Of a DNA stretch of 64,000 bases, positions 8,551-30,120 are shown piece after piece (position 1 is the stretch's first letter; the number at the start of each line of letters is the position of its first letter). The stretch is from contig CAZSQU010000002.1 in assembly GCA_964608985.1 (NCBI GenBank), forward strand, positions 50,849 through 114,848, in the 5' to 3' direction. Made by a program: the position numbers and the translations under genes. This stretch comes from an uncultured Spirochaetales bacterium (GTDB lineage: Bacteria; Spirochaetota; GWE2-31-10; CAYYKD01). A model generated the notes under the pieces. That model worked only from the letters and a program-made list of their open reading frames with translations, was not told where the DNA came from and ran no database searches.

Positions 8551-9600
8551 TTGAAAAAATATCTTTTTGATCTCGATTATAATTCTCTTTGTGAACTAAA
8601 ACATTTTGACAGTAAGTTTAGAATAAAACAGATAGTTGATTTTGTTTTTAAAAAACTTGAATTCGATATAAATAAAATGACTTCACTTCCGATTGATTTG
8701 AGAAAAAAAATTGATGATTTGTTTTTTATTAATAATCTCACCGTGGAAAAAAAATATATATCTGAAGATGGAACGATAAAATATCTGTTTAGACTTGAAG
8801 ACGGGAATTTTGTAGAATCTGTAAGTCTTAGTGATATTAATAATCGTAAGACTTTTTGTATATCAACACAAGTCGGATGTAGAATGGGATGTACATTTTG
8901 TAAAACCGGCAAAATAGGTTTTATAAGGGATATGACTCCGGACGAGATCGTATCGCAAGTTATTCTACTTCATAAGTATTCAATATCTGATCAAGATGAT
9001 AAAAGCAGATTTAATATTGTTTTAATGGGGATGGGTGAGCCGTTAGATAATATATCCAATCTTAAGAAGGGATTGTCGATTATTACCGGCAAAGAGTTTT
9101 TTGGCCTATCTCAGGACAGAATAACACTGTCAACCTGCGGGGTTGTAGATAGGATAGATGATTTTTTTGATGAGTTTCCGGGGGTCAATCTTGCAGTTTC
9201 ACTTAACTCAAATATAAATGATAAACGAAAACAAACAATGCCCATAACAAATAAACACAGCATTGAACAAATCGTTAAAGCTGTAAAAAATTATACTCAG
9301 AAATATAAGAAGCGGGTAACCCTCGAATATGTTTTAATAAAATCATTTAATAACGGTGAAGATGAATTGGCGGGCTTTGTTAAAAATTTCAAGGGATTAG
9401 ATGTGCTAATTAATCTTATCCCTTTAAATCATTCTGATGATAAATCAGCTCCGCCATCAAATAATGAGATAATGGAATTTAAAACTAAGCTTGAAAAGTC
9501 AGGATTTACGGTAACAAGAAGGTATAGAAGGGGCAGTGACATCAATGCTGATTGCGGGCAACTCTATGGAAGTTATAAATCCGGTCAGATCTGCCTATGA
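8551..9600 (+). CDS. rlmN: 23S rRNA (adenine2503-C2)-methyltransferase RlmN (radical SAM)
   Basis: CISTQVGCRMGCTFCKTG (CxxxCxxC radical-SAM cluster motif in RlmN context), MGMGEPLDN motif, ~350 aa. TTG start 2 nt after the upstream stop. Confidence 0.8.
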   Translation: MKKYLFDLDYNSLCELKHFDSKFRIKQIVDFVFKKLEFDINKMTSLPIDLRKKIDDLFFINNLTVEKKYISEDGTIKYLFRLEDGNFVESVSLSDINNRKTFCISTQVGCRMGCTFCKTGKIGFIRDMTPDEIVSQVILLHKYSISDQDDKSRFNIVLMGMGEPLDNISNLKKGLSIITGKEFFGLSQDRITLSTCGVVDRIDDFFDEFPGVNLAVSLNSNINDKRKQTMPITNKHSIEQIVKAVKNYTQKYKKRVTLEYVLIKSFNNGEDELAGFVKNFKGLDVLINLIPLNHSDDKSAPPSNNEIMEFKTKLEKSGFTVTRRYRRGSDINADCGQLYGSYKSGQICL

Positions 9601-10481
9601 ATCCACGCTTATATTTTTTTGCTTTGGCTTGTGTGTGTATAATATCAATAATATTGTCTTCCGCTTACTACATTGACTGCTATATTTTAGGGAAAAATTT
9701 TATACTTGATTATGATGAGATTGAAAATTTTGAAGATTTTCTTAATAAAACAGAAAATTTAAATTTTATCAGTGATAAACCTGAATATTTGATAAGGTCA
9801 GATTTATATAACTTTAGATATGATCATGCATTCTATTTATCATCAATTATCTTTTATAATCAAACATATTCCAAGTTGATAGATTATCAATTTGCTAATG
9901 AGTATGTCCGGCAAACTGCAGTAGATATTTTTAATAACAAAATATATTTAAATCGGTATTGTTCATATGTTGATGATGTAAGATTATTATCTTTTAAAAA
10001 GATAAGTGAGGAATATGACAAGCTTGCCGGTATTTTATATGATCAAAATACTACAGACACCCATTTTTTAAATGAGAGAAAAAGATTTGTAGAATTGAGT
10101 CTAATTAAATTAGAGAAAAACGATTATAATAATAATCTTGATTTATTTAATAATAAAGAATTATTGTTTGAAGACTTTGAGAATATTGCAAAAGAACATT
10201 CCATTGATCATCAAACTTCAAATAACGGAGGATTTATTGACAAAGGAATTGAGGAAGAAAAACTTGTACAATATTTTAATTTAGAGAGTAATTATAGATT
10301 CCATAAGGATAGAATCTATAAATTTGAGATAAATGAAAACATATATATATTGAAAATATCAAAAGTATTTAATCGTAATTTAACATATGGGGTAGATTAT
10401 TCATTATATTCCATATTTAATCAATATAAAGATGATATTCAATCTATTTATGAAGATTATACTATTATGATTATTGATTAG
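9597..10481 (+). CDS. hypothetical membrane-anchored protein
   Basis: N-terminal TM helix (LYFFALACVCIISIILSSAYY) followed by a hydrophilic N/Y/D-rich domain. No recognisable motif. Start overlaps rlmN stop. Confidence 0.4.
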   Translation: MNPRLYFFALACVCIISIILSSAYYIDCYILGKNFILDYDEIENFEDFLNKTENLNFISDKPEYLIRSDLYNFRYDHAFYLSSIIFYNQTYSKLIDYQFANEYVRQTAVDIFNNKIYLNRYCSYVDDVRLLSFKKISEEYDKLAGILYDQNTTDTHFLNERKRFVELSLIKLEKNDYNNNLDLFNNKELLFEDFENIAKEHSIDHQTSNNGGFIDKGIEEEKLVQYFNLESNYRFHKDRIYKFEINENIYILKISKVFNRNLTYGVDYSLYSIFNQYKDDIQSIYEDYTIMIID

Positions 10482-10689: not shown

Positions 10690-10718
10690 TTGACACCCTA
10701 TATATAGTGTTATATATT
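10690..10718 (+). promoter_or_regulatory. sigma70-type promoter of nrdR (TTGACA - 17 nt - TATATT) with an NrdR-box-like palindrome ACACCCTATATATAGTGT occupying the spacer
   Basis: TTGACA at 10690-10695, TATATT at 10713-10718. The spacer contains ACAC...CTATATATAG...GTGT at 10693-10710, which matches the 16-bp NrdR-box consensus (as recalled, acaCwAtATaTwGtgt) at 15/16 positions. Confidence 0.5.
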
Positions 10719-10764
10719 GCTATTAAGCGTAATAATAGTTATAGGTAGTTGGGGTAAACATAAA

Positions 10765-11265
10765 TTGAAATGTCCTGTTTGTGCGAATTTTGAGGACAAG
10801 GTTCTTGAAACCAGACAGGTTGCAGATGGAACAAGTGTCAGAAGAAGAAGAAGATGTCTCTCTTGCGGTTACAGATTTACATCATACGAAGTTATCGAAG
10901 AGAAACAATTAATGATTGTAAAAAATGACGGAAGAAGAGAACCTTTCAGCATTGAAAAAATTTCATATGGTATAAAAAAAGCAACGGAAAAAAGAAAAAT
11001 ATCTTTGTCTGTTGTAGAGAATTTAATTTCAGATATCGAAGAAGAAGCAATATTTAAAAGCGGTGAAACTCATGAGCTCAGGTCAAAGGATCTTGGGGAG
11101 ATTGTTATGGAAAAACTTTCTGAGATTGATGAGGTTGCTTATATAAGGTTTGCATCTGTTTATAAGAAATTCAATGATCTGGATGAGTTTATTATTGAGA
11201 TCAAAAAGATAAAAAAAAGTTTGGGGAGGGGCAATGTCAAACAAAAGTCTGGCAAACTGGAATGA
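10765..11265 (+). CDS. nrdR: transcriptional repressor NrdR (zinc ribbon + ATP-cone)
   Basis: (M)KCPVCA...CLSCGYRFTSYE zinc ribbon followed by an ATP-cone (VIKRDG-like, KNDGRREPF). TTG at 10765 preferred over the listed 10717, which lies inside the promoter -10. GGGGT RBS 9 nt upstream. Confidence 0.85.
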   Translation: MKCPVCANFEDKVLETRQVADGTSVRRRRRCLSCGYRFTSYEVIEEKQLMIVKNDGRREPFSIEKISYGIKKATEKRKISLSVVENLISDIEEEAIFKSGETHELRSKDLGEIVMEKLSEIDEVAYIRFASVYKKFNDLDEFIIEIKKIKKSLGRGNVKQKSGKLE

Positions 11266-13330
11266 CTTTTTACGAGGTGAAAAAAGTGAAGAACGGTTTG
11301 TGGTAAATAAGGTTGTTAAAAGAGACGGTCAACTTGAGATATATAACAGAAATAAGATATACGATGCGATTAACGCATGTCTTTTGCACATCAATAAAGA
11401 TGACTCTATTCTTGCTGAGAGATTGACTGAAGCAACAGAAAAATCATTATCTAACTTTATGTCAAAAAGGCATCCGAATTCAGTTCCTGCGATAGAAGAG
11501 ATACAGGACATTGTTGAAAGGGTGTTAATGGAGCAAGGGGAGTTTGAGGCGGCAAAAGCTTATATTCTTTATAGATCTAAACATGATGCGGTAAGGGATT
11601 CCAAGAAACTGATGCTTGACATAGATAAAACTATGGACGGCTATTTGAATCAATCGGACTGGCGGGTAAATGAGAACGCAAATGTTAATTTTAGTCTTGG
11701 CGGTTTAATATTACATAATTCCGGTACTATAACAGCAAATTACTGGCTCAAAAATATTTATACACCTGAGATTGCTGAAGCTCATATAAATGCTGATTAT
11801 CATCTTCATGATCTTAGTATGTTCAGCGGATATTGTGCCGGCTGGTCATTAAGGCAGCTTATCAATGAAGGATTGGGCGGTGTAAAGGGTAAAATAAGTT
11901 CTAAGCCTTCGAAGCATTTATATACGCTTATTTTTCAGATAGTAAATTTCCTTGGGATTATGCAGAATGAATGGGCGGGTGCACAGGCATTTTCAAGTTT
12001 TGATACTTATTTAGCTCCGTTTGTAAGAGCAGATAATCTTTCTTATCATGAAACAAAACAGGCAATTCAAAGTTTTGTTTTTGGGGTAAATACACCTTCA
12101 AGGTGGGGCAGTCAAGCCCCGTTTACTAATATTACACTTGATTGGGTTGTGCCGGATGATATGAAGAACAAAAAAGCTGTTGTAGGCGGGGTAGAACTTG
12201 ATACAACCTATGGTGATTATCAGAAAGAAATGGATATGATAAATAAAGCATTTATTGAAATAATGATTACAGGAGATGCTAATGGAAGAGGTTTTCAGTA
12301 TCCGATTCCTACTTATAATATAACATCAGAATTTGATTGGGAATCCGATAATGCCAAACTGCTTTTTGAGATGACAGCAAAATATGGCACACCTTATTTC
12401 CAGAATTTTATTAATAGTGATCTTAATCCGTCAGATGTAAGGTCAATGTGTTGCCGATTACAGCTTGATAAGCGTGAATTACGAAAGAAAGGCGGCGGTT
12501 TATTCGGTGCTGATGAGTTGACAGGATCGATTGGGGTTGTTACGATAAATCTTCCAAGGATAGGATTTCTTGCGAAAAGTAAACAGGAGTTTTTTCAGCG
12601 ACTTGTTCATGTTATGGATTTGGCCGCAGAGTCACTTAAAATTAAAAGAAAGGTTATCACAAAGCTAATGGATGGTGGCTTATTTCCATATTCAAAAAGG
12701 TTTCTAGGGCATTTTAATAACCATTTTTCGACAATAGGTATAAATGGCATGAATGAATGTTTGATTAACTTTATGGGAAAGAGCATTGTTGATGTTGAAG
12801 GAAAGGAATTTGCTGTTGAGATACTTGATTTTATGAGAAAAAGGATTGCGGATTATCAGGAAGAATCTGGAGACCTATTTAATCTTGAGGCAACTCCTGC
12901 TGAAAGTACAAGCTATCGGCTTGCTAAGCATGACAAAGATAGATATAAGGATATTTATACATCAGGCGAGAATGATCCGTATTACACAAATTCTTCGCAG
13001 TTACCGGTTGATTATACTGCGGATATATTTGAGGCACTTGATCATCAATCAGACCTACAATCAAGATATACAGGCGGTACGGTTTTTCATGGTTTTATCG
13101 GTGAGGCGATTGAAGATTGGAGATCGTGTCGTAATCTGGTTAAGGCAATTGCTTATAATTATAGGATACCTTATTTTACAATATCACCGACATTCTCTGT
13201 CTGTCCGGTTCATGGTTATATTTCAGGTGAACATTTTAATTGCCCGAAGTGTGCCGATGAGGAGAGAAGGGAATTAATTGGTAGAATAAATGAGTTGGAG
13301 AATAAACGAAGAAGGCTTACGGCTGTTTAA
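11234..13330 (+). CDS. nrdD: anaerobic ribonucleoside-triphosphate reductase catalytic subunit NrdD (class III RNR); ORF ends after the zinc ribbon and lacks the glycyl-radical motif
   Basis: N-terminal ATP-cone (VVKRDGQLEIYNRNKI), large class III RNR barrel, C-terminal CPVHG...CPKC zinc ribbon. No RxCGY-type motif before the stop at 13328-13330. GGGGAGGGG RBS. Overlaps nrdR by 32 nt. Confidence 0.85.
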   Translation: MSNKSLANWNDFLRGEKSEERFVVNKVVKRDGQLEIYNRNKIYDAINACLLHINKDDSILAERLTEATEKSLSNFMSKRHPNSVPAIEEIQDIVERVLMEQGEFEAAKAYILYRSKHDAVRDSKKLMLDIDKTMDGYLNQSDWRVNENANVNFSLGGLILHNSGTITANYWLKNIYTPEIAEAHINADYHLHDLSMFSGYCAGWSLRQLINEGLGGVKGKISSKPSKHLYTLIFQIVNFLGIMQNEWAGAQAFSSFDTYLAPFVRADNLSYHETKQAIQSFVFGVNTPSRWGSQAPFTNITLDWVVPDDMKNKKAVVGGVELDTTYGDYQKEMDMINKAFIEIMITGDANGRGFQYPIPTYNITSEFDWESDNAKLLFEMTAKYGTPYFQNFINSDLNPSDVRSMCCRLQLDKRELRKKGGGLFGADELTGSIGVVTINLPRIGFLAKSKQEFFQRLVHVMDLAAESLKIKRKVITKLMDGGLFPYSKRFLGHFNNHFSTIGINGMNECLINFMGKSIVDVEGKEFAVEILDFMRKRIADYQEESGDLFNLEATPAESTSYRLAKHDKDRYKDIYTSGENDPYYTNSSQLPVDYTADIFEALDHQSDLQSRYTGGTVFHGFIGEAIEDWRSCRNLVKAIAYNYRIPYFTISPTFSVCPVHGYISGEHFNCPKCADEERRELIGRINELENKRRRLTAV

Positions 13331-13358
13331 ATTTTATTTATTTTTTAGGGGGGGGGAA

Positions 13359-13877
13359 ATGGAAAGAGTAATGGAGATTGATTCGCAATTGGAAGAACTG
13401 AGAACACAGCTCGCAAATGTAAAAGGGCGTGATACAGAGGTTTACACTAGGATTGTCGGTTACCACAGAGCTGTTGCAAATTGGAATAAAGGAAAAAGAG
13501 AGGAGTATTTTCATAGGAAAGTATTTAAGTATGATAATGTCGGTATTGATAATAAAATCAATTCGGCGACAATTTCAGTACAAAATGATAATAAAATCCC
13601 AGATGTTGAAAATTGTGATTTATCAATAACAAAAGAACAAGTTGCTTATTATAAGTTTTTTTATAGTAAGTATTGTCATAATTGTCAACCGGTTAAAAAT
13701 GCGATAAAGAATACTGCGATACCGGGTGAAGAGGTAGATGTAGGTATAGATTTTGGTTTTGATATGTCAAAGAAATATAATGTTATTAAGACGCCTACGG
13801 TTGTTTTATTAGATAAAAATGAGAATGTGCTTAATGTAATACACACTGTTGAAGAAATTCAAAAAATATTAGTGTGA
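13359..13877 (+). CDS. stand-alone glycyl-radical domain (NrdD C-terminal-like, TRIVGY...WNKGKREEYFHRKV) fused to an NrdH/thioredoxin-like CxxC redoxin domain
   Basis: ATG at 13359 follows a nine-G run (13348-13356) acting as a Shine-Dalgarno sequence. The listed start 13290 lies in an AT-rich, non-protein-like stretch overlapping the nrdD end. VYTRIVGYHRAVANWNKGKREEYFHRKV aligns, by recall, with the C-terminus of E. coli/T4 NrdD (RRTCGYLG...FNAGKQEEVKRRVKH). C-terminal YSKYCHNCQPVKNAIKN...KTPTVVLL has the thioredoxin-fold CxxC and cis-Pro loop and resembles NrdH (CVQC...LPVV). Confidence 0.6.
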   Translation: MERVMEIDSQLEELRTQLANVKGRDTEVYTRIVGYHRAVANWNKGKREEYFHRKVFKYDNVGIDNKINSATISVQNDNKIPDVENCDLSITKEQVAYYKFFYSKYCHNCQPVKNAIKNTAIPGEEVDVGIDFGFDMSKKYNVIKTPTVVLLDKNENVLNVIHTVEEIQKILV

Positions 13878-14560
13878 CAGACATATTTCTCGGCATACAT
13901 AAAACGACACTTATAGATTATCCAGCAGAGGTTGCAACTATTCTTTTTACAGGTGGTTGCAATTTTTTGTGTCCTTATTGTCATAATCCTGAGTTGGTAA
14001 ATATCGGAGATAACCCCAACTGGATCAATATGGATTATATATTTGAACATATAAAGAAAAGGAAAAATCTGTTGGGTGGTGTTGTTATATCCGGCGGTGA
14101 ACCATTAATTCATACAGGTATAATAGATATTATCTCAAGAATAAAGAGCATTGGGTTAAAAGTAAAGATCGATACAAACGGTTCTATGCCGGAAACATTA
14201 AAGATGCTCGATGTTGATTATATTGCTATGGATATAAAGACTGTTTTGTCCGGATACGGAAAATTTTGTACCGTTCTTAAGGATATTGAAACAAGAATAA
14301 ATGATTCGATCAAGTATATTATAAATTCCGGTATAGATCATGAATTCAGAACAACTGTTGTTCCCGGCATTATTGGTGAAAAAGAGATAACTAATATATC
14401 GGCAATGTTAAAAGGTGCTAAGAGAGTATATTTAAACAGATTTAAACCTTCTAAAACCCTTGATCCGGCATATATGGATGTTAAGCCGTATAGTGAAGAA
14501 GAGCTTGACCATTTTAGAAGAATTATATTTGATAACGGTATTCCATGCAAGGTCAGATAA
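13874..14560 (+). CDS. nrdG: anaerobic ribonucleotide reductase activating protein NrdG (radical SAM)
   Basis: GGCNFLCPYCHNPE (CxxxCxxC), ~230 aa, position immediately after nrdD. GTG start overlaps the upstream stop (GTGA). Confidence 0.8.
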   Translation: MTDIFLGIHKTTLIDYPAEVATILFTGGCNFLCPYCHNPELVNIGDNPNWINMDYIFEHIKKRKNLLGGVVISGGEPLIHTGIIDIISRIKSIGLKVKIDTNGSMPETLKMLDVDYIAMDIKTVLSGYGKFCTVLKDIETRINDSIKYIINSGIDHEFRTTVVPGIIGEKEITNISAMLKGAKRVYLNRFKPSKTLDPAYMDVKPYSEEELDHFRRIIFDNGIPCKVR

Positions 14561-21272: not shown

Positions 21273-21635
21273 GTGAAAAGGGATGATGACTTCGAAAAAA
21301 GAAGAAAAGATTTAGCAAAACTCACAGAAGATCAATTGAAAGACAAATTCTGGGAACTTGCTGAAAAAATTGTCAATCCTATGATTGACCTGGCTAAGAC
21401 TCATACTACTCCTGCAGTAGAAAGATCGGTTCTTTTGAGAATGGGTTTCTCATCATTGGAGGCGAAAGATATTGTAAGCAATACAATGGATAGAGGCCTT
21501 ATGGGTAAGGGTGCAGGAAATGTTATTTATAGAGTTGCTAAGGAACTTGGTCGTGATTATCGTGAAGTTGGTAAAGAACTTGCGCAGGGGAAACACTGGG
21601 ATAAAGCAGTTCAAATTTTCAAGGGGGCTAAATAA
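21273..21635 (+). CDS. oraS: D-ornithine 4,5-aminomutase small subunit OraS
   Basis: 120 aa, the size expected for OraS (~121 aa). Immediately followed by, and overlapping, a ~730-aa B12/PLP mutase subunit gene. GGAGG RBS. Confidence 0.7.
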   Translation: MKRDDDFEKRRKDLAKLTEDQLKDKFWELAEKIVNPMIDLAKTHTTPAVERSVLLRMGFSSLEAKDIVSNTMDRGLMGKGAGNVIYRVAKELGRDYREVGKELAQGKHWDKAVQIFKGAK

Positions 21636-23827
21636 TGAAGTTAACACCTAACGAAAAAATTAATATTGATGAGATTTTAAAAGATTTAGATAAGTATAGA
21701 CCAAGAAGAAGAGGATGGACTTGGAGAAAGCCTGAAGAAAACCTAAAACAAGGTCCATTTGTTTTTAGAGAAATGTCAACACCTCTAAAAAATAGTTACG
21801 GTCTTCCATCCAGTAAGTATTTTGGGGATATTGATCCACAACCAAGAGCAAACATTACTACTGAGATTGCATCGGGAAGATTTGAAGATGATATCAGAAG
21901 AATGAGAATGGTTGCGTGGCATGGTGCTGATCATGTTATGGTAATAAGAACAGCCGGACAGTCACATTATGACGGACTTATTGAGGGAACTTCACAAGGT
22001 ATAGGTGGCATTCCTGTTACCAGAAAGCAAGTAAGAGCTCAAAGAAAAGCTATGGATCTTATTGAGGATGAAGTTGGCAGACCTATCAACTATCACTCAT
22101 ATGTGTCCGGTGCTGCCGGTCCGGATATCGCTGTAATGTTTGCAGAAGAAGGTGTAAACGGTTGCCATCAAGACCCTCAATACAATGTTCTTTATAGAAA
22201 TATTAATATGATTAGATCATTTGTTGATGCAGGTGAATCAAAAGCAATTATTGCATGGGCTGATATGGCTCAAATTGATGGTGCGCACAACGCTAATGCC
22301 ACTGCAAGACAAGCATGGAAAGTTATGCCTGAACTTATAGTTCAGCACGGCATTAATGCTATGTTCTCAAAAAAAGTTGGTATTAAACCTTCAAATATTT
22401 GTCTTTCTACTGTTCCTCCGACTGCTCCTCCGGCTCCTTCTATGAGACTTGATCTACCTTATGCTGTTGCACTTAGAGAATTGTTCCCTGAGTACAGAAT
22501 GAGAGCTCAACAGAATACAAAGTACATTGAAGCTGATATTCGTGAAGCAACAGTAACTCATACTTTGAATATGTTGATTTCAGAAATGACAAGAGCTGAT
22601 ATTCAATCAACTATTACTCCGGATGAAGGTAGAAATGTACCTTGGCATTATAATAATATTGCCGGTCTTCATACAGCTAAGCAAGCTTTTGCAGGTATGG
22701 ATGGACTTAAGGATATGCTTGAGATAAAGAGAGACGGTGAACTTGGAAAAAGAGTAAGAGAATTAAAAGAAAAAGCTGTACTTTATATGCAAGAAATACT
22801 TGATGAAGGCGGATATTTTGAGGCAGTTGAGAAAGGTTTCTTTGTAGATTCTGCTGAATACCCTGAGAGACATTCTGATGGTATTGCCAGAAAGAAAGAT
22901 GGTGGTATTGGCGCAGGGACAGTATATCCGAGAGATCCTGATTATTTTGCTCCAGTTACTGCCCACTTTGGTAATAATAAGCTGCCGGCAGGTGTTAAAA
23001 ATCCATCAGACGCTATTAGCGGATGTACATTTGAAAAACCGGAAAAGATTGTATTTATCGATGAGCTTGATCCAAATGATAATGTTAATGTCAGACTTTC
23101 TGAGAATAGAAAATATTTTTCAAAACAACATCTTAAACCGGAAGTTCAATGGGCCGGTGACGGTATAATACTTATTACTCTTATGCTTCCTTGTGATATC
23201 GATACAGCTGCAGTTGCTGCTATTGAAATTGGTAAAAAAATGGGACTTGAAGAAGTTGAAGTAATCAATAAGATGGTTATCCAAGAAGCTGAAGGCACAC
23301 TCATTGAAATGAAAGGTTCAGTTGCGTTCGAAATTGATGCGACAAAACTAAAGATTCCTCCAAGACCTGAGATTATGTCAGACGATGAGATAAGAGCAGA
23401 TATTGAGAAATCACCGATGACTATTGTTGCAGGAACTATTGGACAGGATGAGCATTCTGTAGGTTTGAGAGAGATAATAGATATTAAGCATGGTGGTATT
23501 GAGAAATATGGTATAATGCCAATATATTTAGGAACCTCGGTAGCTCCGGAAAAGATAGTAGATGCAGCTATTGAATCTAAAGCCGGTGCAATTCTATTAA
23601 GTACAATTATAAGCCATGATAATACACACTACAAGAATATGAAGAAAGTTCATGAACTTTGTGTGGAAAAAGGTATAAGAGACAAAATTATACTTATTGC
23701 CGGTGGAACACAGGTAATTGATGATATGGCAATAAAAGCAGGAGTTGATAAAGGTTTTGGTAGAGGAACTAAAGGTCAACATGTAGCTACATTTTTAGTT
23801 AAGAAAAGAAGACAGATGAAAAAATAA
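21635..23827 (+). CDS. oraE: D-ornithine 4,5-aminomutase large subunit OraE (PLP-binding TIM barrel + adenosylcobalamin-binding Rossmann domain)
   Basis: 730 aa. C-terminal B12-binding signature GQDEHSVG (DxHxxG) and GG.Q...D pattern (IAGGTQVIDDM). The 120-aa + 730-aa pair fits OraS/OraE rather than KamD/KamE (~520 + ~260 aa). Confidence 0.75.
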   Translation: MKLTPNEKINIDEILKDLDKYRPRRRGWTWRKPEENLKQGPFVFREMSTPLKNSYGLPSSKYFGDIDPQPRANITTEIASGRFEDDIRRMRMVAWHGADHVMVIRTAGQSHYDGLIEGTSQGIGGIPVTRKQVRAQRKAMDLIEDEVGRPINYHSYVSGAAGPDIAVMFAEEGVNGCHQDPQYNVLYRNINMIRSFVDAGESKAIIAWADMAQIDGAHNANATARQAWKVMPELIVQHGINAMFSKKVGIKPSNICLSTVPPTAPPAPSMRLDLPYAVALRELFPEYRMRAQQNTKYIEADIREATVTHTLNMLISEMTRADIQSTITPDEGRNVPWHYNNIAGLHTAKQAFAGMDGLKDMLEIKRDGELGKRVRELKEKAVLYMQEILDEGGYFEAVEKGFFVDSAEYPERHSDGIARKKDGGIGAGTVYPRDPDYFAPVTAHFGNNKLPAGVKNPSDAISGCTFEKPEKIVFIDELDPNDNVNVRLSENRKYFSKQHLKPEVQWAGDGIILITLMLPCDIDTAAVAAIEIGKKMGLEEVEVINKMVIQEAEGTLIEMKGSVAFEIDATKLKIPPRPEIMSDDEIRADIEKSPMTIVAGTIGQDEHSVGLREIIDIKHGGIEKYGIMPIYLGTSVAPEKIVDAAIESKAGAILLSTIISHDNTHYKNMKKVHELCVEKGIRDKIILIAGGTQVIDDMAIKAGVDKGFGRGTKGQHVATFLVKKRRQMKK

Positions 23828-23941: not shown

Positions 23942-26900
23942 TTAAAATAATGAGTTTCTTAATCCCAAGCCAAATTGCATTACAACTCCTGCATTTACCT
24001 CAGCCGGTACAAAGAATAATGCATGTTCAAAGTAAAGTGCAAATTTTCTTAGTATTCCGAATCGTTCAACTTTGAAGTAGTCAATCTGATACATAAAACC
24101 TGCAAGTAGTTTTCCATCAACGGCAGCATTATAATTAGCAATATCTGCAATTTCTCTTTGTGAAGCTCCAAATCCGCTGAACCACAGGAATGAAGCACCT
24201 ATAGAAACACTTATTGAGAAATTTTTTGCATCTTCACCGTAGAAGAATTCAAAAGGTATATCAAGAATTCTTGCATGAAGCTTTCCACCTACAACAAATC
24301 CCATAAATCTTGGATTATAACCTTCTTCAGGGTACGGGTAATAACCTGTATTTCTTATAGGGTCATCTTTAGCTATACCTGTACCCGGGTAAAGTGTTGG
24401 ATCTGTTACTGCACCAGGCATAAGGTCTTGCATATTATCCCTTGATGGTCTCCATCCAAACATCCCCTCCAAACGAACTATGTCATCAAAGAAACTCATA
24501 CCTAAACCACCTGATACGAGCATTCCACTTCCTCCAAGAAAGTCGAAATCATATTGACTCCATAGATATAATCCTTGAATAAATTGAGGTATCTTGCCAA
24601 GGTCTTTATCGAACTGTCTAAGAGCAATTTTAACCTCTTCTACTGAACCGTTATCATTTGATGACCCTCTTACCTCAACCGATCTGAAAACTCGTTCACT
24701 GTCAACAGGTGTATCAATAACTATTTCCGGCCGTTCTCTATCTATGTATATTTTAAAGAACTTAATTGTTTCAATGCCTGATGCTGTACGAGCTTTCATT
24801 TGAAGCATATGAACTCCATCTGAAAGATTTTGAGTTTGTACTCTAACTCTCCAAATATTATTAAATACGGTTGCAGTTTCAAATGTACTTCCGTTATCGA
24901 GACTTAAAAGGAGTTCTACCACCCTGTTATCATAGCGATAGCGATTTAATTCAACTATAAGTTCCCCTTTGCTTACTTCAATATCTTCAACAGCAGGTAT
25001 TAATTCAGGTGTTCTTCTGTATCTATTTTGAAACTCAATGTGTTTTCTTTCCTGAATAATTCTCTTTACAACAAATTCAATATCTTTCTCAAAAAACTCT
25101 GCAGTACCCTCCATCCAAGGTCTATGTTCCATTGCTCTCCCATTTAAGTGTGTAGTAACATTTACTATAGGACCGCATCTGTCATAAGAAAAAGTACGGA
25201 ACTCCTGTGCTGACAACTGTTCATTTCCTGCTATTGGATTTGTCAATGCCCTAACGGTTATTCTTTGGTCACCTATAGGTAGTTCAACAGCCGGAATACT
25301 AACAGACCAGTTAGTTGTTCCTATTGCCTTGTATTCTTTTCCTGCTATATTAACTATGACCGATTCTATACCTGCTGAATGGCGTGATGTACCAAAGAAT
25401 TCTATCATATCACCGGTTAGCCTTTGATTTGGCTGTGGTTGGTCAATTTCAAGAACCGGGAGATCTGCTCTCGGGTTAATTTTAAAGTTAATTGAGCTTT
25501 CTGAAACATTTCCCGCTAAATCTGTAACTCTTGCTACAAGATTATATCTTTTGTCGATATCTGCGTCATTCCATCGTGTAGTATCAATTTTGTATGACCA
25601 GGCTTCAAGTGAATCAATAGGCATTGAAACATATCCATTCGCATCTGCACCCGGAAGTGGAGCAATTACCCACACCTCAACATCTTGATTGTTTATTCTC
25701 TTTATCGTTGGGGTTACAAGAAGAATTTCAACAGATTTTAATCCGATATTGTCCCGGCTTCTACCAACGATGTTGATCTCTTTCCCAACTTCAGATCCAT
25801 CTCTCGGGTAAAGGACCTCTATCTCAGGTGCAGTGTTATCTATATTAAACAGTGAGAATGAAAAAGATTCTGAACCGGCGTTGTCTTTTGCTCTGATAAA
25901 TACCCTTAATTCACCATCAGGTAATGTTGCAGAATTAAAACGATAATTCCAGCTTTCTGAACCATTTGCGTCAAAATATGACCATCCGTTATTTATACTT
26001 ATTTGTACTTTTTGAATTTCATTGGGGTCTGACGAATTACCAATAATTACTGTCTCACCTTTAAGATATTGGTTAGTCTCAGGGCTTCTTACATGTATTG
26101 TCGGATTTTCAAGGTCAATATGGAAATCAGTTGATTTTATATCACTTGCTGTACCATATATATCAAAAGCTTGTACTTCAAGAATATATTTACCGGACAT
26201 TTCACCATTTGTCTGAATCCTTTCATTCCAGTTCATTCCTTGTGTAACTTCGATTCTTTTCCATTCGCCGTTTATACCATTAGATTTGTTTAATCTGTAT
26301 TGAACATAATTAATTCCGTCTGCATCCGTTGCAAGACCGCCAAGTTCAACTACATTAGTAAATCTTTGACCGGATAATGACGGGCTGTTAATATAAACCT
26401 GCGGTATATCTGACATCGGGTCTATTGTAATTGCTTTCTGTATTATAGTTTTATTACCGGCTGCATCTATTGCAAAAATCTCAATATTATGATTAATTAA
26501 TTCTGTGGATCTTAGATTAATCCCTTGAAGATCTCTTAAATTATATATAAAATTGTATGGTCGTTTTCCGTTAGCTACAACCTGCTGTCCATTAAACATA
26601 TATACTATTTCAGAAATACTGTTCGTGTCAACTGCACTTCCTTTTATATTAACACTGCCGGTAACCTTTTCTTCTTCTGTATTTTCATTGGAAGCTGTGT
26701 TAAATTGAAATACAGTTCTATCAGCTGTAATCTCAGGTACGGTTTTATCGATTATATAACTGTAAGGTATATATGAGATTTTACCAGAACTGTCTGTAGC
26801 TATTAAAACAATTCTTTTGAAACCGTCTTCAAGAGAAGCGACTGAAACTGGTATTTTAAATATTTTATCATTAGGATTAACTGTTATGCTGTTATCAGTT

Positions 26901-29900
26901 ATAAATTGACTTAACTGCTGATTTTGTGTTCTTTTCAGTGCATCTATCATAGGAACCTGATACCTTTGAATGGAGGTTGAAGGTTCTAGTGCTACCGGTG
27001 TTTTAGTAAGAATGCCCGCTTTAATAAGCAATGTCGAAGAATTAAACAATTGATCCGAGGTTAACTGTGCAAGATTAAGGTTGTTGTTTCTATCTTTTAT
27101 ATAGATTCTAAATAACTCATCTTTTTCCGCTTGGTTAAGATTTGGTGCATAATTCTGTTCAAAATCGCTCATAGTAATCGTTGCAGGTATATTCTTTAGA
27201 TCAACGAACTGAAGTTCAATTGTATCTGAGTCATCAAAAACAGACCCGTATATTGTGAAGTCATTATTTAAAGATATATTAGCAGGTGGCCATATAACCT
27301 TTGATACTGGAATCTGATAATCATTATTAACGGTAGCTGTAAGGATCGAAGTTGGTTGATTAAGCGTAATATCAATAATTGAAGAATTGAAACTTCCGCT
27401 GCCTATTGCGATTCTATTTTCTTGTGTAATATTAACAAAATAAATTCCATTGGAATTTTCTGTCTTAATAAAAGGTATTGTTTTATTGTTTATTTTAAAA
27501 CCGTATGTGCTGTTATAATTATCAGAAAGAAACAAGAAACATGCTTGACTATTCTGATCGATATTGAATGTTGAGCCGCTAAATAAGATCGGGTTAGGAC
27601 TATAAACTGTATTGTCATTCTTTACAACATTAAAAGTAAGGGTATATTCAGGTTCAGGACTATTAACAAAATTTACCCTGAATGTTGATCTGACCGGATT
27701 GCCAGCCATATCAATTGCATCTATTACTATGTTGTAATCAATATTTTTGTTATCGCTTGTTTTAGTCTTTAATGTGAAAACCGCTTCCATATCTTCAATA
27801 ACAGTATTAACAGTCTCAGCTTCTGCAGAATTTGGTGTTATAGTAAGTTTTATTTCTTTCATTAAGAGATTTTCTTCTATTGTAACTATTTCATTCTGTA
27901 TCATACCTGTTCTTGGTTGTATAACCGGAGCTGTTATTCTTGGCGGAGTTTTGTCGATAACAATCGGAACTGAAATTGATGAGGTTTTTCCTGCAGAATC
28001 TACTGCATTTAATTTTATAACTATAATACCGTCATTGACATTGATTCTTGATTGAACAAAATCAATTTTTATATTATCGCAAGTATATCTCAGACTGTCT
28101 GTTGTTCTGAATCGCAATTGGGTATCTCTGATTATTTCTGTACCACTAATATCTGAAATACTGTAGGATGCTGATCTTAACTCACCGGCTTTATTTATGT
28201 TAACAGGCAGATCTATTGATTTTCCAAATGATTTTCCTGCCCATACAGCGATAGTCTGCATATCAAATACCGGATATTGTGTGTCTATGTAGAAAATTGT
28301 TTTGACCGGATTTCCTTTAGTGTCATTAATATCAACCGGTACAAGTTCAGCTGTATATTTTCCATCAGGAAATATGGTTTTGTCTCTCAGATCTACCATA
28401 GCCGAAAAGTTATATTTCGAAGGAATTGTATATGTATAAACAGGTTGATTAGCAGCATTAAATATTGTAAGCAGTGTTTCTTTCGAACCATTATTATCAA
28501 CTATTGTCCCGAATACCGGAAGTACGCCGGAAACAATCTTATTATTTGAAAAGCTATTAAGAGTAAGTACCGGTTTATCAATATTTTGATCAATATTCAA
28601 TCTAATGGTTTTGGTTATGATATTTCCTGAAATATCAAATGCGCTTGCTTCCAGGTTATAACTTCCTGATCTGAGCCTTCTTGTGTCAATAGTAAAAGTC
28701 CAGAAAGGGAAACTTTCGGTTGATTCGATTGTAACAAGAGCAGGATCTATCCCTTTTATTTCAAATTTAACATCAGTAAGATCAACATTGTCCCGTGCCA
28801 TTACAAACGAACTGAAAATCCCGGATTCTGTCGCTCCATCCACCGGAAAAATAATTTCTAATTCGGGAGGTTGATGGTCTATAGTTACTGAAATTGGAAA
28901 ATACCCTTGTGATCCGGCAATATCAGTAGCTCTAACCCATATTGTCTGTTTGCCGTCAACCATAACATCAGAACTAAAAGAATATTTAAATGCAGTTTCT
29001 ACTTTTTCTCTATAAGTGAAGTTTTCGATTGTATTGAAAGTAAGACGGTTGTCTATTGAATATTCTATTAATCGTATTTTGTTACTATCACTTGCAGTTC
29101 CCTCAAGAAGAATATTTCCTGATATAATATCACCGGATTTTAATGAACTTACTGTTATTGATGGGGATCGTCTGTCAAGTATAAATGGTATCTCAGTATA
29201 ATCTTTAGTTAAACCATAAACATTTTTCCATTGGCTTCCTAATCCGTTATTATCATAAGCCCTGAGTTTTATCATGTGGTTTCCATCGTTCATATTTGTT
29301 GTAGTAAGATTATAACTCCAGAAATTTGTTCCGCTGCAGATAAATTTTTCTTCTTCTCCGGATTCATTAATAATTATAACTTCAACTCTGTCAATAGCAT
29401 CATTATCTAAAGCTGTTCCAACAATTTCAAGATTACCTGTTACCCTTGCATTAGGAAGCGGATTAATAACTGTTAGTGTCGGTATATCTGATTTCGGATC
29501 GATATTAATATTAACAGCTGTTTCAAAACTTGTATTTCTCATGTTATCAATTGCTGTTAATGCAATATGCCAAGGACCGGTTTTGCCTGCCAGATCAAAT
29601 TGATGATTCCAGTTAAGTGTGCCTTCTACGGTTATCCTGTCATCTTGAAGATTCTTCAGATCATTTTCTTTGGATTGCATTAAAATTCTTTTTTCAATTA
29701 TATTTTGTCTGATTTCAACCCTTCTTAATAGAAGCGCGGATCTTTCAGCTCTGACGGTTGCCATTTCTTCTTCAGGTAAGGGATTTCTTGGCCCTGCAAA
29801 AAGCAATCTGTCGGTTGTAACAGTTATCTCTTTTTCGGTGTTAGAAAGTTCTCTCTCAAATGCTCTTATCTGATTTGTGATGTCTCTTATCTCATTTCTG

Positions 29901-30067
29901 ATGACCTGTTCCGGCGTTAATTCTCTTTGTGTGAAAAGTTGTGCAGGTGTTGTTTCAGTAGTATCATCAGTTAGTTCTGTTACAGAACTGACATTTGAAT
30001 CCTGAGCGTAGAAAAGATTTGCTGAAATTAATAACATCAACAAAAACAAAGTAATTTTTTTAAACAT
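23942..30067 (-). CDS. giant (~2041 aa) secreted cell-surface protein: signal peptide, N-terminal coiled coil, more than 12 tandem Ig-like domains with recurring A.D.AGN motif, distinct ~300-aa C-terminal domain ending in Phe
   Basis: ATG at 30067 (MFKKITLFLLMLLISANLFYAQD) preferred over the listed 30100: GGAG RBS 5 nt upstream and a clean signal peptide. Repeating ~100-aa units contain VRATDIAGS / LEASAFDISGN / LNAVDSAGK / IDAIDMAGNP / IFAIDAAGNK / VQAFDIYGT / IRAKDNAGSES / VARVTDLAGNVS, typical of bacterial Ig-like domains. The C-terminal region is G/F/Y-rich and ends ...FGLGLRNSLF. Confidence 0.6.
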   Translation of the reverse strand: MFKKITLFLLMLLISANLFYAQDSNVSSVTELTDDTTETTPAQLFTQRELTPEQVIRNEIRDITNQIRAFERELSNTEKEITVTTDRLLFAGPRNPLPEEEMATVRAERSALLLRRVEIRQNIIEKRILMQSKENDLKNLQDDRITVEGTLNWNHQFDLAGKTGPWHIALTAIDNMRNTSFETAVNINIDPKSDIPTLTVINPLPNARVTGNLEIVGTALDNDAIDRVEVIIINESGEEEKFICSGTNFWSYNLTTTNMNDGNHMIKLRAYDNNGLGSQWKNVYGLTKDYTEIPFILDRRSPSITVSSLKSGDIISGNILLEGTASDSNKIRLIEYSIDNRLTFNTIENFTYREKVETAFKYSFSSDVMVDGKQTIWVRATDIAGSQGYFPISVTIDHQPPELEIIFPVDGATESGIFSSFVMARDNVDLTDVKFEIKGIDPALVTIESTESFPFWTFTIDTRRLRSGSYNLEASAFDISGNIITKTIRLNIDQNIDKPVLTLNSFSNNKIVSGVLPVFGTIVDNNGSKETLLTIFNAANQPVYTYTIPSKYNFSAMVDLRDKTIFPDGKYTAELVPVDINDTKGNPVKTIFYIDTQYPVFDMQTIAVWAGKSFGKSIDLPVNINKAGELRSASYSISDISGTEIIRDTQLRFRTTDSLRYTCDNIKIDFVQSRINVNDGIIVIKLNAVDSAGKTSSISVPIVIDKTPPRITAPVIQPRTGMIQNEIVTIEENLLMKEIKLTITPNSAEAETVNTVIEDMEAVFTLKTKTSDNKNIDYNIVIDAIDMAGNPVRSTFRVNFVNSPEPEYTLTFNVVKNDNTVYSPNPILFSGSTFNIDQNSQACFLFLSDNYNSTYGFKINNKTIPFIKTENSNGIYFVNITQENRIAIGSGSFNSSIIDITLNQPTSILTATVNNDYQIPVSKVIWPPANISLNNDFTIYGSVFDDSDTIELQFVDLKNIPATITMSDFEQNYAPNLNQAEKDELFRIYIKDRNNNLNLAQLTSDQLFNSSTLLIKAGILTKTPVALEPSTSIQRYQVPMIDALKRTQNQQLSQFITDNSITVNPNDKIFKIPVSVASLEDGFKRIVLIATDSSGKISYIPYSYIIDKTVPEITADRTVFQFNTASNENTEEEKVTGSVNIKGSAVDTNSISEIVYMFNGQQVVANGKRPYNFIYNLRDLQGINLRSTELINHNIEIFAIDAAGNKTIIQKAITIDPMSDIPQVYINSPSLSGQRFTNVVELGGLATDADGINYVQYRLNKSNGINGEWKRIEVTQGMNWNERIQTNGEMSGKYILEVQAFDIYGTASDIKSTDFHIDLENPTIHVRSPETNQYLKGETVIIGNSSDPNEIQKVQISINNGWSYFDANGSESWNYRFNSATLPDGELRVFIRAKDNAGSESFSFSLFNIDNTAPEIEVLYPRDGSEVGKEINIVGRSRDNIGLKSVEILLVTPTIKRINNQDVEVWVIAPLPGADANGYVSMPIDSLEAWSYKIDTTRWNDADIDKRYNLVARVTDLAGNVSESSINFKINPRADLPVLEIDQPQPNQRLTGDMIEFFGTSRHSAGIESVIVNIAGKEYKAIGTTNWSVSIPAVELPIGDQRITVRALTNPIAGNEQLSAQEFRTFSYDRCGPIVNVTTHLNGRAMEHRPWMEGTAEFFEKDIEFVVKRIIQERKHIEFQNRYRRTPELIPAVEDIEVSKGELIVELNRYRYDNRVVELLLSLDNGSTFETATVFNNIWRVRVQTQNLSDGVHMLQMKARTASGIETIKFFKIYIDRERPEIVIDTPVDSERVFRSVEVRGSSNDNGSVEEVKIALRQFDKDLGKIPQFIQGLYLWSQYDFDFLGGSGMLVSGGLGMSFFDDIVRLEGMFGWRPSRDNMQDLMPGAVTDPTLYPGTGIAKDDPIRNTGYYPYPEEGYNPRFMGFVVGGKLHARILDIPFEFFYGEDAKNFSISVSIGASFLWFSGFGASQREIADIANYNAAVDGKLLAGFMYQIDYFKVERFGILRKFALYFEHALFFVPAEVNAGVVMQFGLGLRNSLF

Positions 30068-30091
30068 AAAATCTCCTGAAAAAATCAAAAT

Positions 30092-30120
30092 ATTAAACAA
30101 TCATAAATTATTGTCGTCAA
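30092..30120 (-). promoter_or_regulatory. putative sigma70 promoter of the giant surface-protein gene (TTGACG - 17 nt - TTTAAT on the minus strand)
   Basis: Reverse complement of 30092-30120 gives TTGACGacaataatttatgattgTTTAAT, ~25 nt upstream of the ATG at 30067. Confidence 0.35.

Follow-up and report, generated by a model that had tools for sequence, protein, structure and literature searches.

The question raised by the locus described here is where the glycine that bears the radical in a class III ribonucleotide reductase (RNR) is encoded when the gene for its catalytic subunit, nrdD, stops short of it. The locus is a compact operon, nrdR-nrdD-X-nrdG (10690-14560, + strand), in which X is the name given here to a small gene. 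It lies in a stretch of 64,000 nucleotides (nt) from an uncultured Spirochaetales bacterium (GCA_964608985.1, contig CAZSQU010000002.1, positions 50,849-114,848, forward strand); this whole stretch is called the window, and its features are numbered within it. To our knowledge, in every glycyl-radical enzyme so far described, class III RNR included, this glycine is placed at the C-terminal end of the catalytic chain. As judged from its sequence, nrdR-nrdD-X-nrdG appears to encode a two-subunit class III RNR, in which a core subunit without a loop of its own is supplied with the glycyl-radical loop in trans by the product of X.

The core subunit (nrdD, 11234..13330, +) is a protein of 698 amino acids (aa) and 79.6 kDa, with an ATP-cone, a class III barrel and a zinc ribbon, and without a glycyl-radical loop. 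The ATP-cone (aa 26-118; 11309..11587, +) matched PF03477 at E 4.7e-20, and aa 147-685 matched the Pfam model NRDD (PF13597) at E 1e-178, over profile positions 1-539 of 562 only. The NCBIfam model NF006126 was matched at positions 2-659 of 684 (1092 bits, cut-off 548), and TIGR02487 scored 481 bits against a cut-off of 326. Because the profile matches end early, the final ~25 profile positions, those of the glycyl-radical loop, are taken to be absent from the core. The zinc ribbon, CPVH...CPKC (C657, H660, C670 and C673; 13199..13252, +), is followed by the stop codon 25 aa further on. No RxxGY motif was found after it, and the alignment with the NrdD of Thermotoga maritima, which covers residues 178-684 (E 3e-39), likewise stops at the zinc ribbon. 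Of the features by which the catalytic subunit of a class III RNR is recognised, the barrel models, the finger-loop cysteine, the zinc ribbon and an adjacent NrdG are all present, and the RxxGY loop in cis is not.

The missing segment is carried by the next gene. X (13359..13877, +; ATG start) specifies a protein of 172 aa and 19.9 kDa, the putative radical subunit, which consists of a helix, a glycyl-radical loop, a linker and a thioredoxin-like domain. The protein carries TEVYTRIVGYHRAVANWNKGKREEYFHRKVF, with the TEVYTRIVGY...NWNKGK motif; the loop itself comprises aa 25-56 (DTEVYTRIVGYHRAVANWNKGKREEYFHRKVF; 13431..13526, +), with G34 (13458-13460) as the predicted radical glycine. These residues matched the very end of Pfam NRDD, from position 532 to position 562 of 562, with E 1.8e-6 and a score of 27.4 bits that passes the gathering cut-off of 26.2; in NF006126 they aligned to positions 648-682 of 684. 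The two chains are complementary in the Pfam profile, the core leaving it at position 539 and X taking it up at position 532. An alignment of 33 diverse X homologues showed V21, G23, T26-Y29, R31-Y35 (G34 included), R37, N41-N43, G45, K46, E49 and R53 to be invariant, as were C106, C109 and the cis-proline P146 of the thioredoxin-like domain.

The two genes are separated by a spacer of 28 nt (13331..13358, +), in which the scan for terminator-like sites found none. X is in the +1 frame relative to nrdD, and its ATG is preceded by a run of nine G (13348-13356) that ends 2 nt before it and would simply be the Shine-Dalgarno site of X. The activase gene nrdG (radical S-adenosylmethionine family; 13874..14560, +; GTG start) follows at once, overlapping the stop codon of X by 4 nt (GTGA), and its product matched TIGR02495 (NrdG2) with 178 bits against a cut-off of 131. 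A sequence-only reading of this DNA had drawn much the same picture: an NrdD with ATP-cone, barrel and zinc ribbon that ends without a radical motif, the motif in the +1 frame at the N-terminus of the following gene, a G9 Shine-Dalgarno site, and nrdG immediately downstream. All of this was borne out by the profile limits, by X filling the missing end of the NrdD profile, by the GGAGG- or GGGGG-type sites that relatives carry at the same place, and by the overlap and TIGR02495 match of nrdG. A glycyl-radical motif inside the long open reading frame (ORF) was also looked for by alignment, and there was none.

An alternative explanation, put forward in the same reading, is that one NrdD with a long linker is restored within 13290-13330, either by an indel that arose in sequencing or assembly or by a +1 frameshift that is programmed. 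The frame of X is open from 13290, overlapping the end of nrdD, and the G9 homopolymer is close by, but this run sits beyond the nrdD stop codon. Independent assemblies from JGI, ENA and Logan, made from different samples and covering 8.5, 5.6 and 1.3 kb of the locus, were identical, without a single mismatch even across the G9 run. The peptide that reading through would create, …NEEGLRLFKFYLFFRGGE…, is unlike anything in P0227, a natural single-chain relative described below. Sequence upstream of X was available at ~70 loci from other genomes, ~60 of them with a full-length core of ~700 aa and a few more with cores cut at the contig end, and at these loci the split was preserved as two genes. 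Their frame offset was 0, 1 or 2, and the gap between them ranged from -8 to ~240 nt, the few more-negative values reflecting provisional start codons. No core among the ~70 had a C-terminal glycyl-radical motif (RxxGY). A Shine-Dalgarno sequence of the GGAGG or GGGGG type stood ahead of X in most of ~40 listed loci, and nrdG lay downstream of X in most of the ~70. Finally, X was unlinked from both nrdD and nrdG, and had unrelated neighbours, in a Spirochaetota metagenome-assembled genome (MAG; L009, 3980-4492) and in Candidatus Caenarcanum bioreactoricola (L047, 3977-4516). A frameshift, whether programmed or accidental, could not account for these two genomes, and the alternative is rejected with near certainty.

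Nor does the locus resemble a decaying nrdD whose 3' end has stayed open by chance. The truncation itself, and nothing more, speaks for such a pseudogene, but X homologues at 35-55% identity keep their catalytic motifs invariant, cores from many genomes share 72-87% identity, and the nrdR and nrdG operon structure has been kept, all of which makes this account vanishingly improbable. Two other candidates were also rejected. Phase variation at the G9 run was discarded on finding no change of length in the three assemblies and ordinary GGAGG sites at this place in relatives; an intein or trans-splicing was discarded on finding no intein or Hint match on core or X, a core tail of 25 aa, and an X that opens directly with a helix.

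The two-gene arrangement is widespread, being present in hundreds of genomes. X had 777 database homologues at E <= 1e-3, and the best 120 of these were all stand-alone proteins of 156-246 aa with 34-55% identity to X. A scan at species level, with one genome per species, recovered at least 560 genomes with a relative, and the best 80 all encode a small protein combining the glycyl-radical domain (GRD) with a thioredoxin-like domain. These 80 loci come mainly from Spirochaetota, including two cultured treponemes (Treponema berlinense ATCC BAA-909 and Treponema sp. OMZ 840), and the remainder from Margulisbacteria, Marinamargulisbacteria, Termititenax and one Melainabacteria-type MAG. The related genomes therefore hold the same two-gene split that the sequence-only reading had proposed to look for, and its central claim, a genuine radical module in trans fused to a redoxin, is supported. 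Its expectation of a rare architecture is not, and single-chain relatives and NrdDs with mini radical proteins exist besides. That the two-subunit architecture is genuine is stated with very high confidence.

How a detached loop could be held on its core is suggested by two sequence elements that flank the break. The core ends in an amphipathic helix with a heptad pattern (ADEERRELIGRINELENKRRRLTAV; 13253..13327, +), and X begins with another (MERVMEIDSQLEELRTQLANVKG; 13359..13427, +), for which AlphaFold2 predicted a helix at residues 2-20 with a predicted local distance difference test score (pLDDT) of 80-84; they are proposed as docking helices 1 and 2. Both show a/d heptad patterns among charged residues, and both were present in 67 of 67 distinct split pairs. 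Counted from the CxxC of the zinc ribbon, the core tail had L, I, V, M or F at +11, +15 and +18 in every pair and at +25 in 77%. The N-terminus of X had these residues at -6, -16 and -20 in every pair, at -9 in 94%, at -23 in 87% and at -13 in 69%. Since merely 8 residues lie between CxxC and EYMRIVGY in T. maritima NrdD, the two helices are regarded as additions.

Relatives in which the chain is unbroken were recovered by searching with the concatenated core and X sequences. There were 13 such NrdD-GRD-Trx proteins, of 827-886 aa and 59-63% identity over 96-99% of the query, in the order barrel, zinc ribbon, cis glycyl-radical loop, linker and CPNC thioredoxin-like domain (for example P0232, P0275 and P0290). 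The two that were looked up, P0227 and P0290, sit in the same nrdR-nrdD-nrdG operon. Twelve of the 13 have the short junction of canonical enzymes, CPxCGxEAEVYTRIVGY, without the helices. In the remaining one, P0227, the helices are joined covalently as a helix-loop-helix (CPKCEEEKRSELQQKLEQLQAAPRNREVEQIDGEIAELKQQLSEVRGTPTEIYTRIVGY), modelled by AlphaFold2 as helices 675-694 and 701-716 at pLDDT 78-88. As the helices occur in every broken chain and in almost no continuous one, they presumably keep core and X in one complex and probably serve to dock X on the core; this pattern is the strongest argument to hand for such a role. The simplest form would be a coiled coil of two antiparallel helices.

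The order of events was approached with a neighbour-joining tree of 72 cores and canonical outgroups. Fifty-five Spirochaete-type sequences formed a clade (99% bootstrap) inside which split and single-chain forms were interleaved, and three single-chain Trx-type representatives, together a clade at 88%, were basal to it. Within the 55, single-chain forms were monophyletic in 13% of replicates and split forms in 1%. This suggests that the thioredoxin-like extension came first and the chain break later, possibly with re-fusions, although the direction is tentative.

Detachment of the radical domain appears to be common well beyond Spirochaetota. The core was scored against 1.84 billion cluster representatives, and the best 150 (P0312-P0461; 42-68% identity) were sorted with a regular-expression screen. 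By this screen, 72 of the 150 nearest NrdD representatives end 4-48 aa past the zinc ribbon without a radical motif, many of them carrying inteins; 40 are canonical, 7 have the glycyl-radical loop followed by a CPNC extension, and 31 fell outside the screen, several of these being visibly canonical. Of five representatives without a GRD that were looked up, three have a mini radical gene on the same contig. In a cellular MAG (L133), a core of 1175 aa is followed 90 nt later by a gene of 60 aa, MKEEKKRVKLVPCEVYSRVVGYFRPVQNWNPGKQQEFKERK..., and on a phage-like contig (L134) a core of 821 aa with the same tail helix overlaps a gene of 63 aa that has an N-terminal helix and glycyl-radical loop and no Trx domain. 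The third (L131) has a loop gene of 50 aa located 2.4 kb upstream of the core, while for the remaining pair, L130 and L132, no radical gene was called near the core. What sets the form in Spirochaetota and Margulisbacteria apart is its thioredoxin-like domain.

Small radical proteins were also frequent among viral sequences. About 22 of 40 hits in IMG/VR (viral loci L088-L127) were stand-alone ORFs of 41-100 aa with an NrdD-type glycyl-radical loop, such as those of L106 (2989-3129), L108, L117, L090 (2992-3183) and L098 (2854-3108). Some have an N-terminal helix like that of X, some include a whole zinc ribbon, and a Trx domain is absent from all of them. Neighbouring ORFs were examined on seven of the viral contigs, where no NrdD core was present within 3 kb of the mini ORF, and a search of GenBank phages with a mini radical peptide matched only the C-termini of full-length phage NrdDs. 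These ORFs may represent radical cartridges that phages encode for class III RNR.

A protein of this kind invites comparison with GrcA/YfiD of pyruvate formate-lyase (PFL), and one could suppose that X is likewise a spare part, repairing an enzyme cleaved by oxygen and never acting as a regular radical subunit. X is a stand-alone glycyl-radical module encoded beside an activase gene; GrcA and phage T4 Y06I set the precedent for PFL, and Andorfer et al. have speculated about spare parts for other glycyl-radical enzymes. Like X, GrcA/YfiD and Y06I are small stand-alone proteins with a glycyl-radical loop that are activated by the cognate activase and complement a large barrel whose own radical domain is missing or out of function (PMC8683613). 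GrcA/YfiD differs from X in belonging to the PFL branch (PF01228), in rescuing an enzyme that normally owns the domain, and in having neither a redoxin domain nor docking helices. Against a repair role, the core has no radical loop that could be damaged, which would leave X as the only source of the radical, and neither X nor any of the 33 scanned family members matched PF01228 or the GrcA models in Pfam and NCBIfam at E <= 0.1. The likeness to GrcA/YfiD that the sequence-only reading had pointed out is thus one of logic and not of family or spare-part function. As the sole radical domain of its core, X would be an obligate subunit, and the repair role is considered very unlikely.

In another sense the term may still apply, with X as a replaceable, consumable subunit. 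The detached loop could be a cheap, exchangeable cartridge: after cleavage by O2 at G34, only the 20-kDa X, or in other lineages a mini protein of 40-65 aa, would have to be replaced and activated anew by NrdG, the 80-kDa core could be reused, and phages might supply mini radical proteins to host or phage cores. This extension of the two-subunit reading is put forward tentatively and is judged less likely than not.

The part of X that follows the loop consists of a linker and a predicted redoxin. The linker (aa 57-95; 13527..13643, +) is of low complexity and variable, its length and sequence differing in the alignment of 33 homologues, and it is predicted to be disordered (pLDDT 48-71). The domain after it (aa 96-172; 13644..13874, +) contains C106-H-N-C109 and the cis-proline P146. 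For aa 97-171, AlphaFold2 predicted a beta-alpha-beta-alpha-beta-beta-alpha fold at pLDDT ~89-94, with strands at 97-102, 123-127, 147-151 and 157-161 and helices at 109-117, 131-139 and 164-171; the CxxC stands at the start of the first helix and the cis-proline just ahead of the third strand. Foldseek matched this model to thioredoxins (E ~1e-5, probability 1.00). Searches of the PDB with the X family profile gave PfPDO of Pyrococcus furiosus (1a8l, E 6e-6), a thioredoxin of 78 aa (3zij, E 1.4e-5) and 1fo5 of Methanocaldococcus jannaschii. In the window protein, aa 100-171 gave sub-threshold matches to Thioredoxin_3, Thioredoxin_2, Thioredoxin_8 and Thioredoxin at E 5e-4 to 7e-3. Of the 33 family members, 25 matched Thioredoxin_2, 20 Thioredoxin_3 and 19 Glutaredoxin (E <= 0.01, best 8e-7). 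The active site is mostly CPNC across the family and CHNC in the window protein. From sequence and model together, the C-terminal 75 residues of X are predicted to form a thioredoxin fold of a generic, minimal Trx/Grx-like kind.

A thioredoxin fold with CHNC and cis-proline had been recognised from the sequence at the outset, and the structural predictions agree with it; the NrdH-like pattern read into the same residues did not hold up, as no NrdH model matched X at E <= 0.1 and no WSGFRP motif could be read in its sequence. NrdH and the redoxin of X have in common a small size, a Trx fold with CxxC, dedication to an RNR and a place in nrd operons, but NrdH serves class Ib and has CVQC and WSGFRP, whereas the X family has C(P/R/H)NC and no WSGFRP. 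In neither Pfam nor NCBIfam was a curated family covering X found, and the source annotations of its homologues are inconsistent, ranging over 'hypothetical protein', 'glutaredoxin-related protein', 'anaerobic ribonucleoside-triphosphate reductase' and 'thiol reductase thioredoxin'.

The role of this domain is to be read together with the chemistry of the core, which carries the markers of the NrdD2 subtype: a third active-site cysteine (C406/C407, in MCCR) and E552. The finger loop, SMCCRL (aa 404-409, with M405, C406, C407 and R408; 12443..12460, +), has the double-cysteine MCCR motif as defined in PMC9669993 and aligns with SCCR of T. maritima. E552 lies in NLEATPAE (12881..12904, +), which aligns with NIEQVPAE of T. 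maritima and would make it, by a pairwise HMMER alignment only, the equivalent of E495, a residue proposed to donate the proton in thiol-dependent NrdD (PMC9669993). A double-cysteine finger loop and a glutamate define the thiol-dependent NrdD2 group of Wei et al. 2014, of which PMC4493059 and PMC9669993 give summaries. The core also has the conserved beta-A cysteine, C201, in SGYCAGW (11825..11845, +; aligned with MPYCFAY of T. maritima), a residue to which the literature assigns the role of disulfide partner in thiol-dependent class III enzymes. Neisseria bacilliformis NrdD is described as having a disulfide between one of its finger-loop cysteines and the beta-A cysteine that is reduced by thioredoxin.

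A precedent for fusing the reductant to an RNR exists in class I, where the glutaredoxin of Grx::NrdB from Facklamia ignava was shown biochemically to be the reductant of the enzyme (Rozman Grinberg 2018, PMC6187632). As in X, the redoxin is fused to the radical-bearing subunit, but the fusion is N-terminal and the Grx is of the GrxC type. The same paper lists a single case of grx::nrdD, from Lachnospiraceae bacterium TWA4, in which the redoxin is joined to a full-length NrdD and not to a detached radical domain. Another redoxin-NrdD linkage was seen in Clostridium phage phiCTP1 (L128, 639-2617), where a gene annotated as 'putative glutaredoxin' lies immediately ahead of a full-length nrdD and overlaps it.

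Because of the NrdD2 markers, the N. bacilliformis chemistry and the Grx::NrdB precedent, the redoxin domain of X is most likely the tethered reductant of the active-site disulfide. Of what the sequence-only reading had said on this point, the thiol-dependent NrdD2-type core is upheld by MCCR and E552, while delivery of the reductant by the Trx domain stays an inference. It may be that the chain is split and X bears the radical, both as described, and that the Trx-like domain serves some other end, either in activation, by maintaining the cysteines of the zinc ribbon or the radical domain in the reduced state, or as a structural or protective cap, with formate reducing the substrate. Met405 of MCCR is compatible with formate chemistry; thioredoxin is described as activating the class III RNR of Escherichia coli (Padovani 2001, as cited in PMC4390871); and mini radical proteins without Trx evidently suffice in other split NrdDs. 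On the other side, the invariant CxxC and cis-proline argue for redox activity, the core bears both NrdD2 markers, the extra cysteine and the glutamate, and in all three fusions examined (split X, the single-chain forms and Grx::NrdB) the redoxin is part of the chain that bears the radical, its role as reductant having been shown for NrdB. A non-reductant role is therefore judged unlikely, though far from negligible.

With the domain of X taken as the tethered reductant, a full mechanism can be proposed, each step of which draws on the anatomy of the two proteins and on knowledge of the family. X would dock by pairing its N-terminal helix with the 25-aa tail of the core in a coiled coil of two helices, which is probably antiparallel. 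NrdG would take a hydrogen atom from G34 of X, whose loop would be inserted in the barrel as in single-chain NrdD, creating a thiyl radical on the finger loop (C406/C407). Because the core is of the NrdD2 type, with the additional finger-loop cysteine and Glu552, every turnover would yield an active-site disulfide between C201 and C406 or C407. The C106-x-x-C109 domain, on its flexible linker of ~40 aa, would re-reduce this disulfide, and a cellular reductase would in turn regenerate the thioredoxin-like domain.

Several observations count against parts of this scheme. Met405 is retained in the finger loop, and enzymes with MCCR may use either formate or thioredoxin (PMC9669993), so that a thiol reductant is not obligatory. 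There is no thioredoxin reductase gene in the operon, and the thioredoxin Pfam scores of the window protein are below the gathering thresholds (best 20.5 against 24.8). As to docking, the glycyl-radical loop in the P0227 model has a pLDDT of 46-53 and is uninformative on barrel insertion or helix-helix packing; in the MAFFT alignment supplied for that model the core tails were misaligned onto the loop and the X helices scattered, and in a second alignment, from which short-junction forms were omitted, X was misplaced altogether. Charge covariation between the two helices exceeded that of shuffles, but shuffling breaks phylogeny, and the covarying pairs are ambiguous between parallel and antiparallel packing. 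The combination of coiled-coil docking, a radical on G34 of X and a tethered reductant is favoured with moderate confidence.

Compared with canonical single-chain NrdD/NrdG systems (T. maritima, PDB 4COI/4U3E; N. bacilliformis NrdD2), the window pair has in common the ATP-cone, barrel, double-cysteine finger loop, glutamate, zinc ribbon, EVYxRIVGY...NWNKGK and an adjacent NrdG. It differs in having the loop on a separate polypeptide, heptad helices of ~25 and 25 aa around the break, and a thioredoxin-fold domain after the loop. The single-chain NrdD-GRD-Trx relatives share the domain order and operon but form one chain; they are named merely 'ribonucleoside triphosphate reductase', and no description of them was found in the literature searched. 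An RNR catalytic chain encoded by two consecutive genes is known from the class II NrdJa/NrdJb of Pseudomonas aeruginosa and Thermus phage phiYS40, the C-terminal piece of which carries a zinc-finger/cysteine module for turnover. That system belongs to another RNR class, is broken at another point, has no radical residue on its small piece and is B12-dependent.

Autonomous radical modules are known to us only for pyruvate formate-lyase (GrcA/YfiD and T4 Y06I). Whether other glycyl-radical enzymes have them too was expressly left undecided by Andorfer et al. 2021. The literature searched did yield split class II enzymes, phage nrdD genes split by introns or inteins, and Grx fusions. No description of a detached class III radical domain was found in it, including reviews of RNR and glycyl-radical enzymes from 2013-2026 and surveys from 2022-2026, with subscription journals thinly covered and a prior report possible.

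At the upstream end of the operon, a promoter-like site (TTGACA, a 17 nt spacer and TATATT; 10690..10718, +) scored 11 of 12 in a consensus scan, its function being predicted, and on direct reading the spacer of this best site contains an NrdR-box-like palindrome, ACACCCTATATATAGTGT. The transcriptional repressor gene nrdR (10765..11265, +) matched TIGR00244 at E 1.1e-51, the profile starting at residue 17 of the ORF. Although the mechanical ORF begins at TTG 10717, the true start is likely TTG 10765 (MKCPVC), which is preceded by a GGGG Shine-Dalgarno sequence. Between rlmN and nrdR lies an ORF of 294 aa (9597-10481, +) that, like one of 614 aa further on (42761-44605, +), had no Pfam match at E <= 1e-5. 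Elsewhere in the window, an ORF of 2052 aa with bacterial Ig-like domains (Big_7, Big_13 and Big_3_3; 23942-30100, -) is probably a giant surface protein. A protein of 821 aa (56025-58490, +) combines pyridine-nucleotide disulfide oxidoreductase, rhodanese, TusA and DsrE_2 domains and resembles a coenzyme A-disulfide/persulfide-reductase-like sulfur-trafficking fusion. A third protein, of 730 aa (21635-23827, +), has a lysine/ornithine aminomutase TIM-barrel, an OAM dimerisation domain and a B12-binding domain in one chain.

The arrangement proposed for nrdR-nrdD-X-nrdG contradicts the textbook description of glycyl-radical enzymes. In genome annotation, the cores would score as complete NrdD, and surveys based on domains would miss the fusion. 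An electron donor attached to a thiol-dependent class III RNR bears on how thioredoxin gains access to a buried active-site disulfide, and a radical domain on its own polypeptide offers a direct handle on how that domain leaves the barrel to meet the activase, and on whether it is activated free and then docked. For anaerobes living at oxic interfaces, such as Treponema and the Margulisbacteria of termite guts or the sea, the split is a candidate economy of oxygen damage. Outside pyruvate formate-lyase, the cartridge would, if true, be the first system with a 'spare-part by design'. The pair would also, if true, be a natural two-piece enzyme for dissecting the exit and re-entry of the radical domain, with the Spirochaetota version bringing a tethered reductant as well, and the cultured Treponema carriers make the split enzyme testable.

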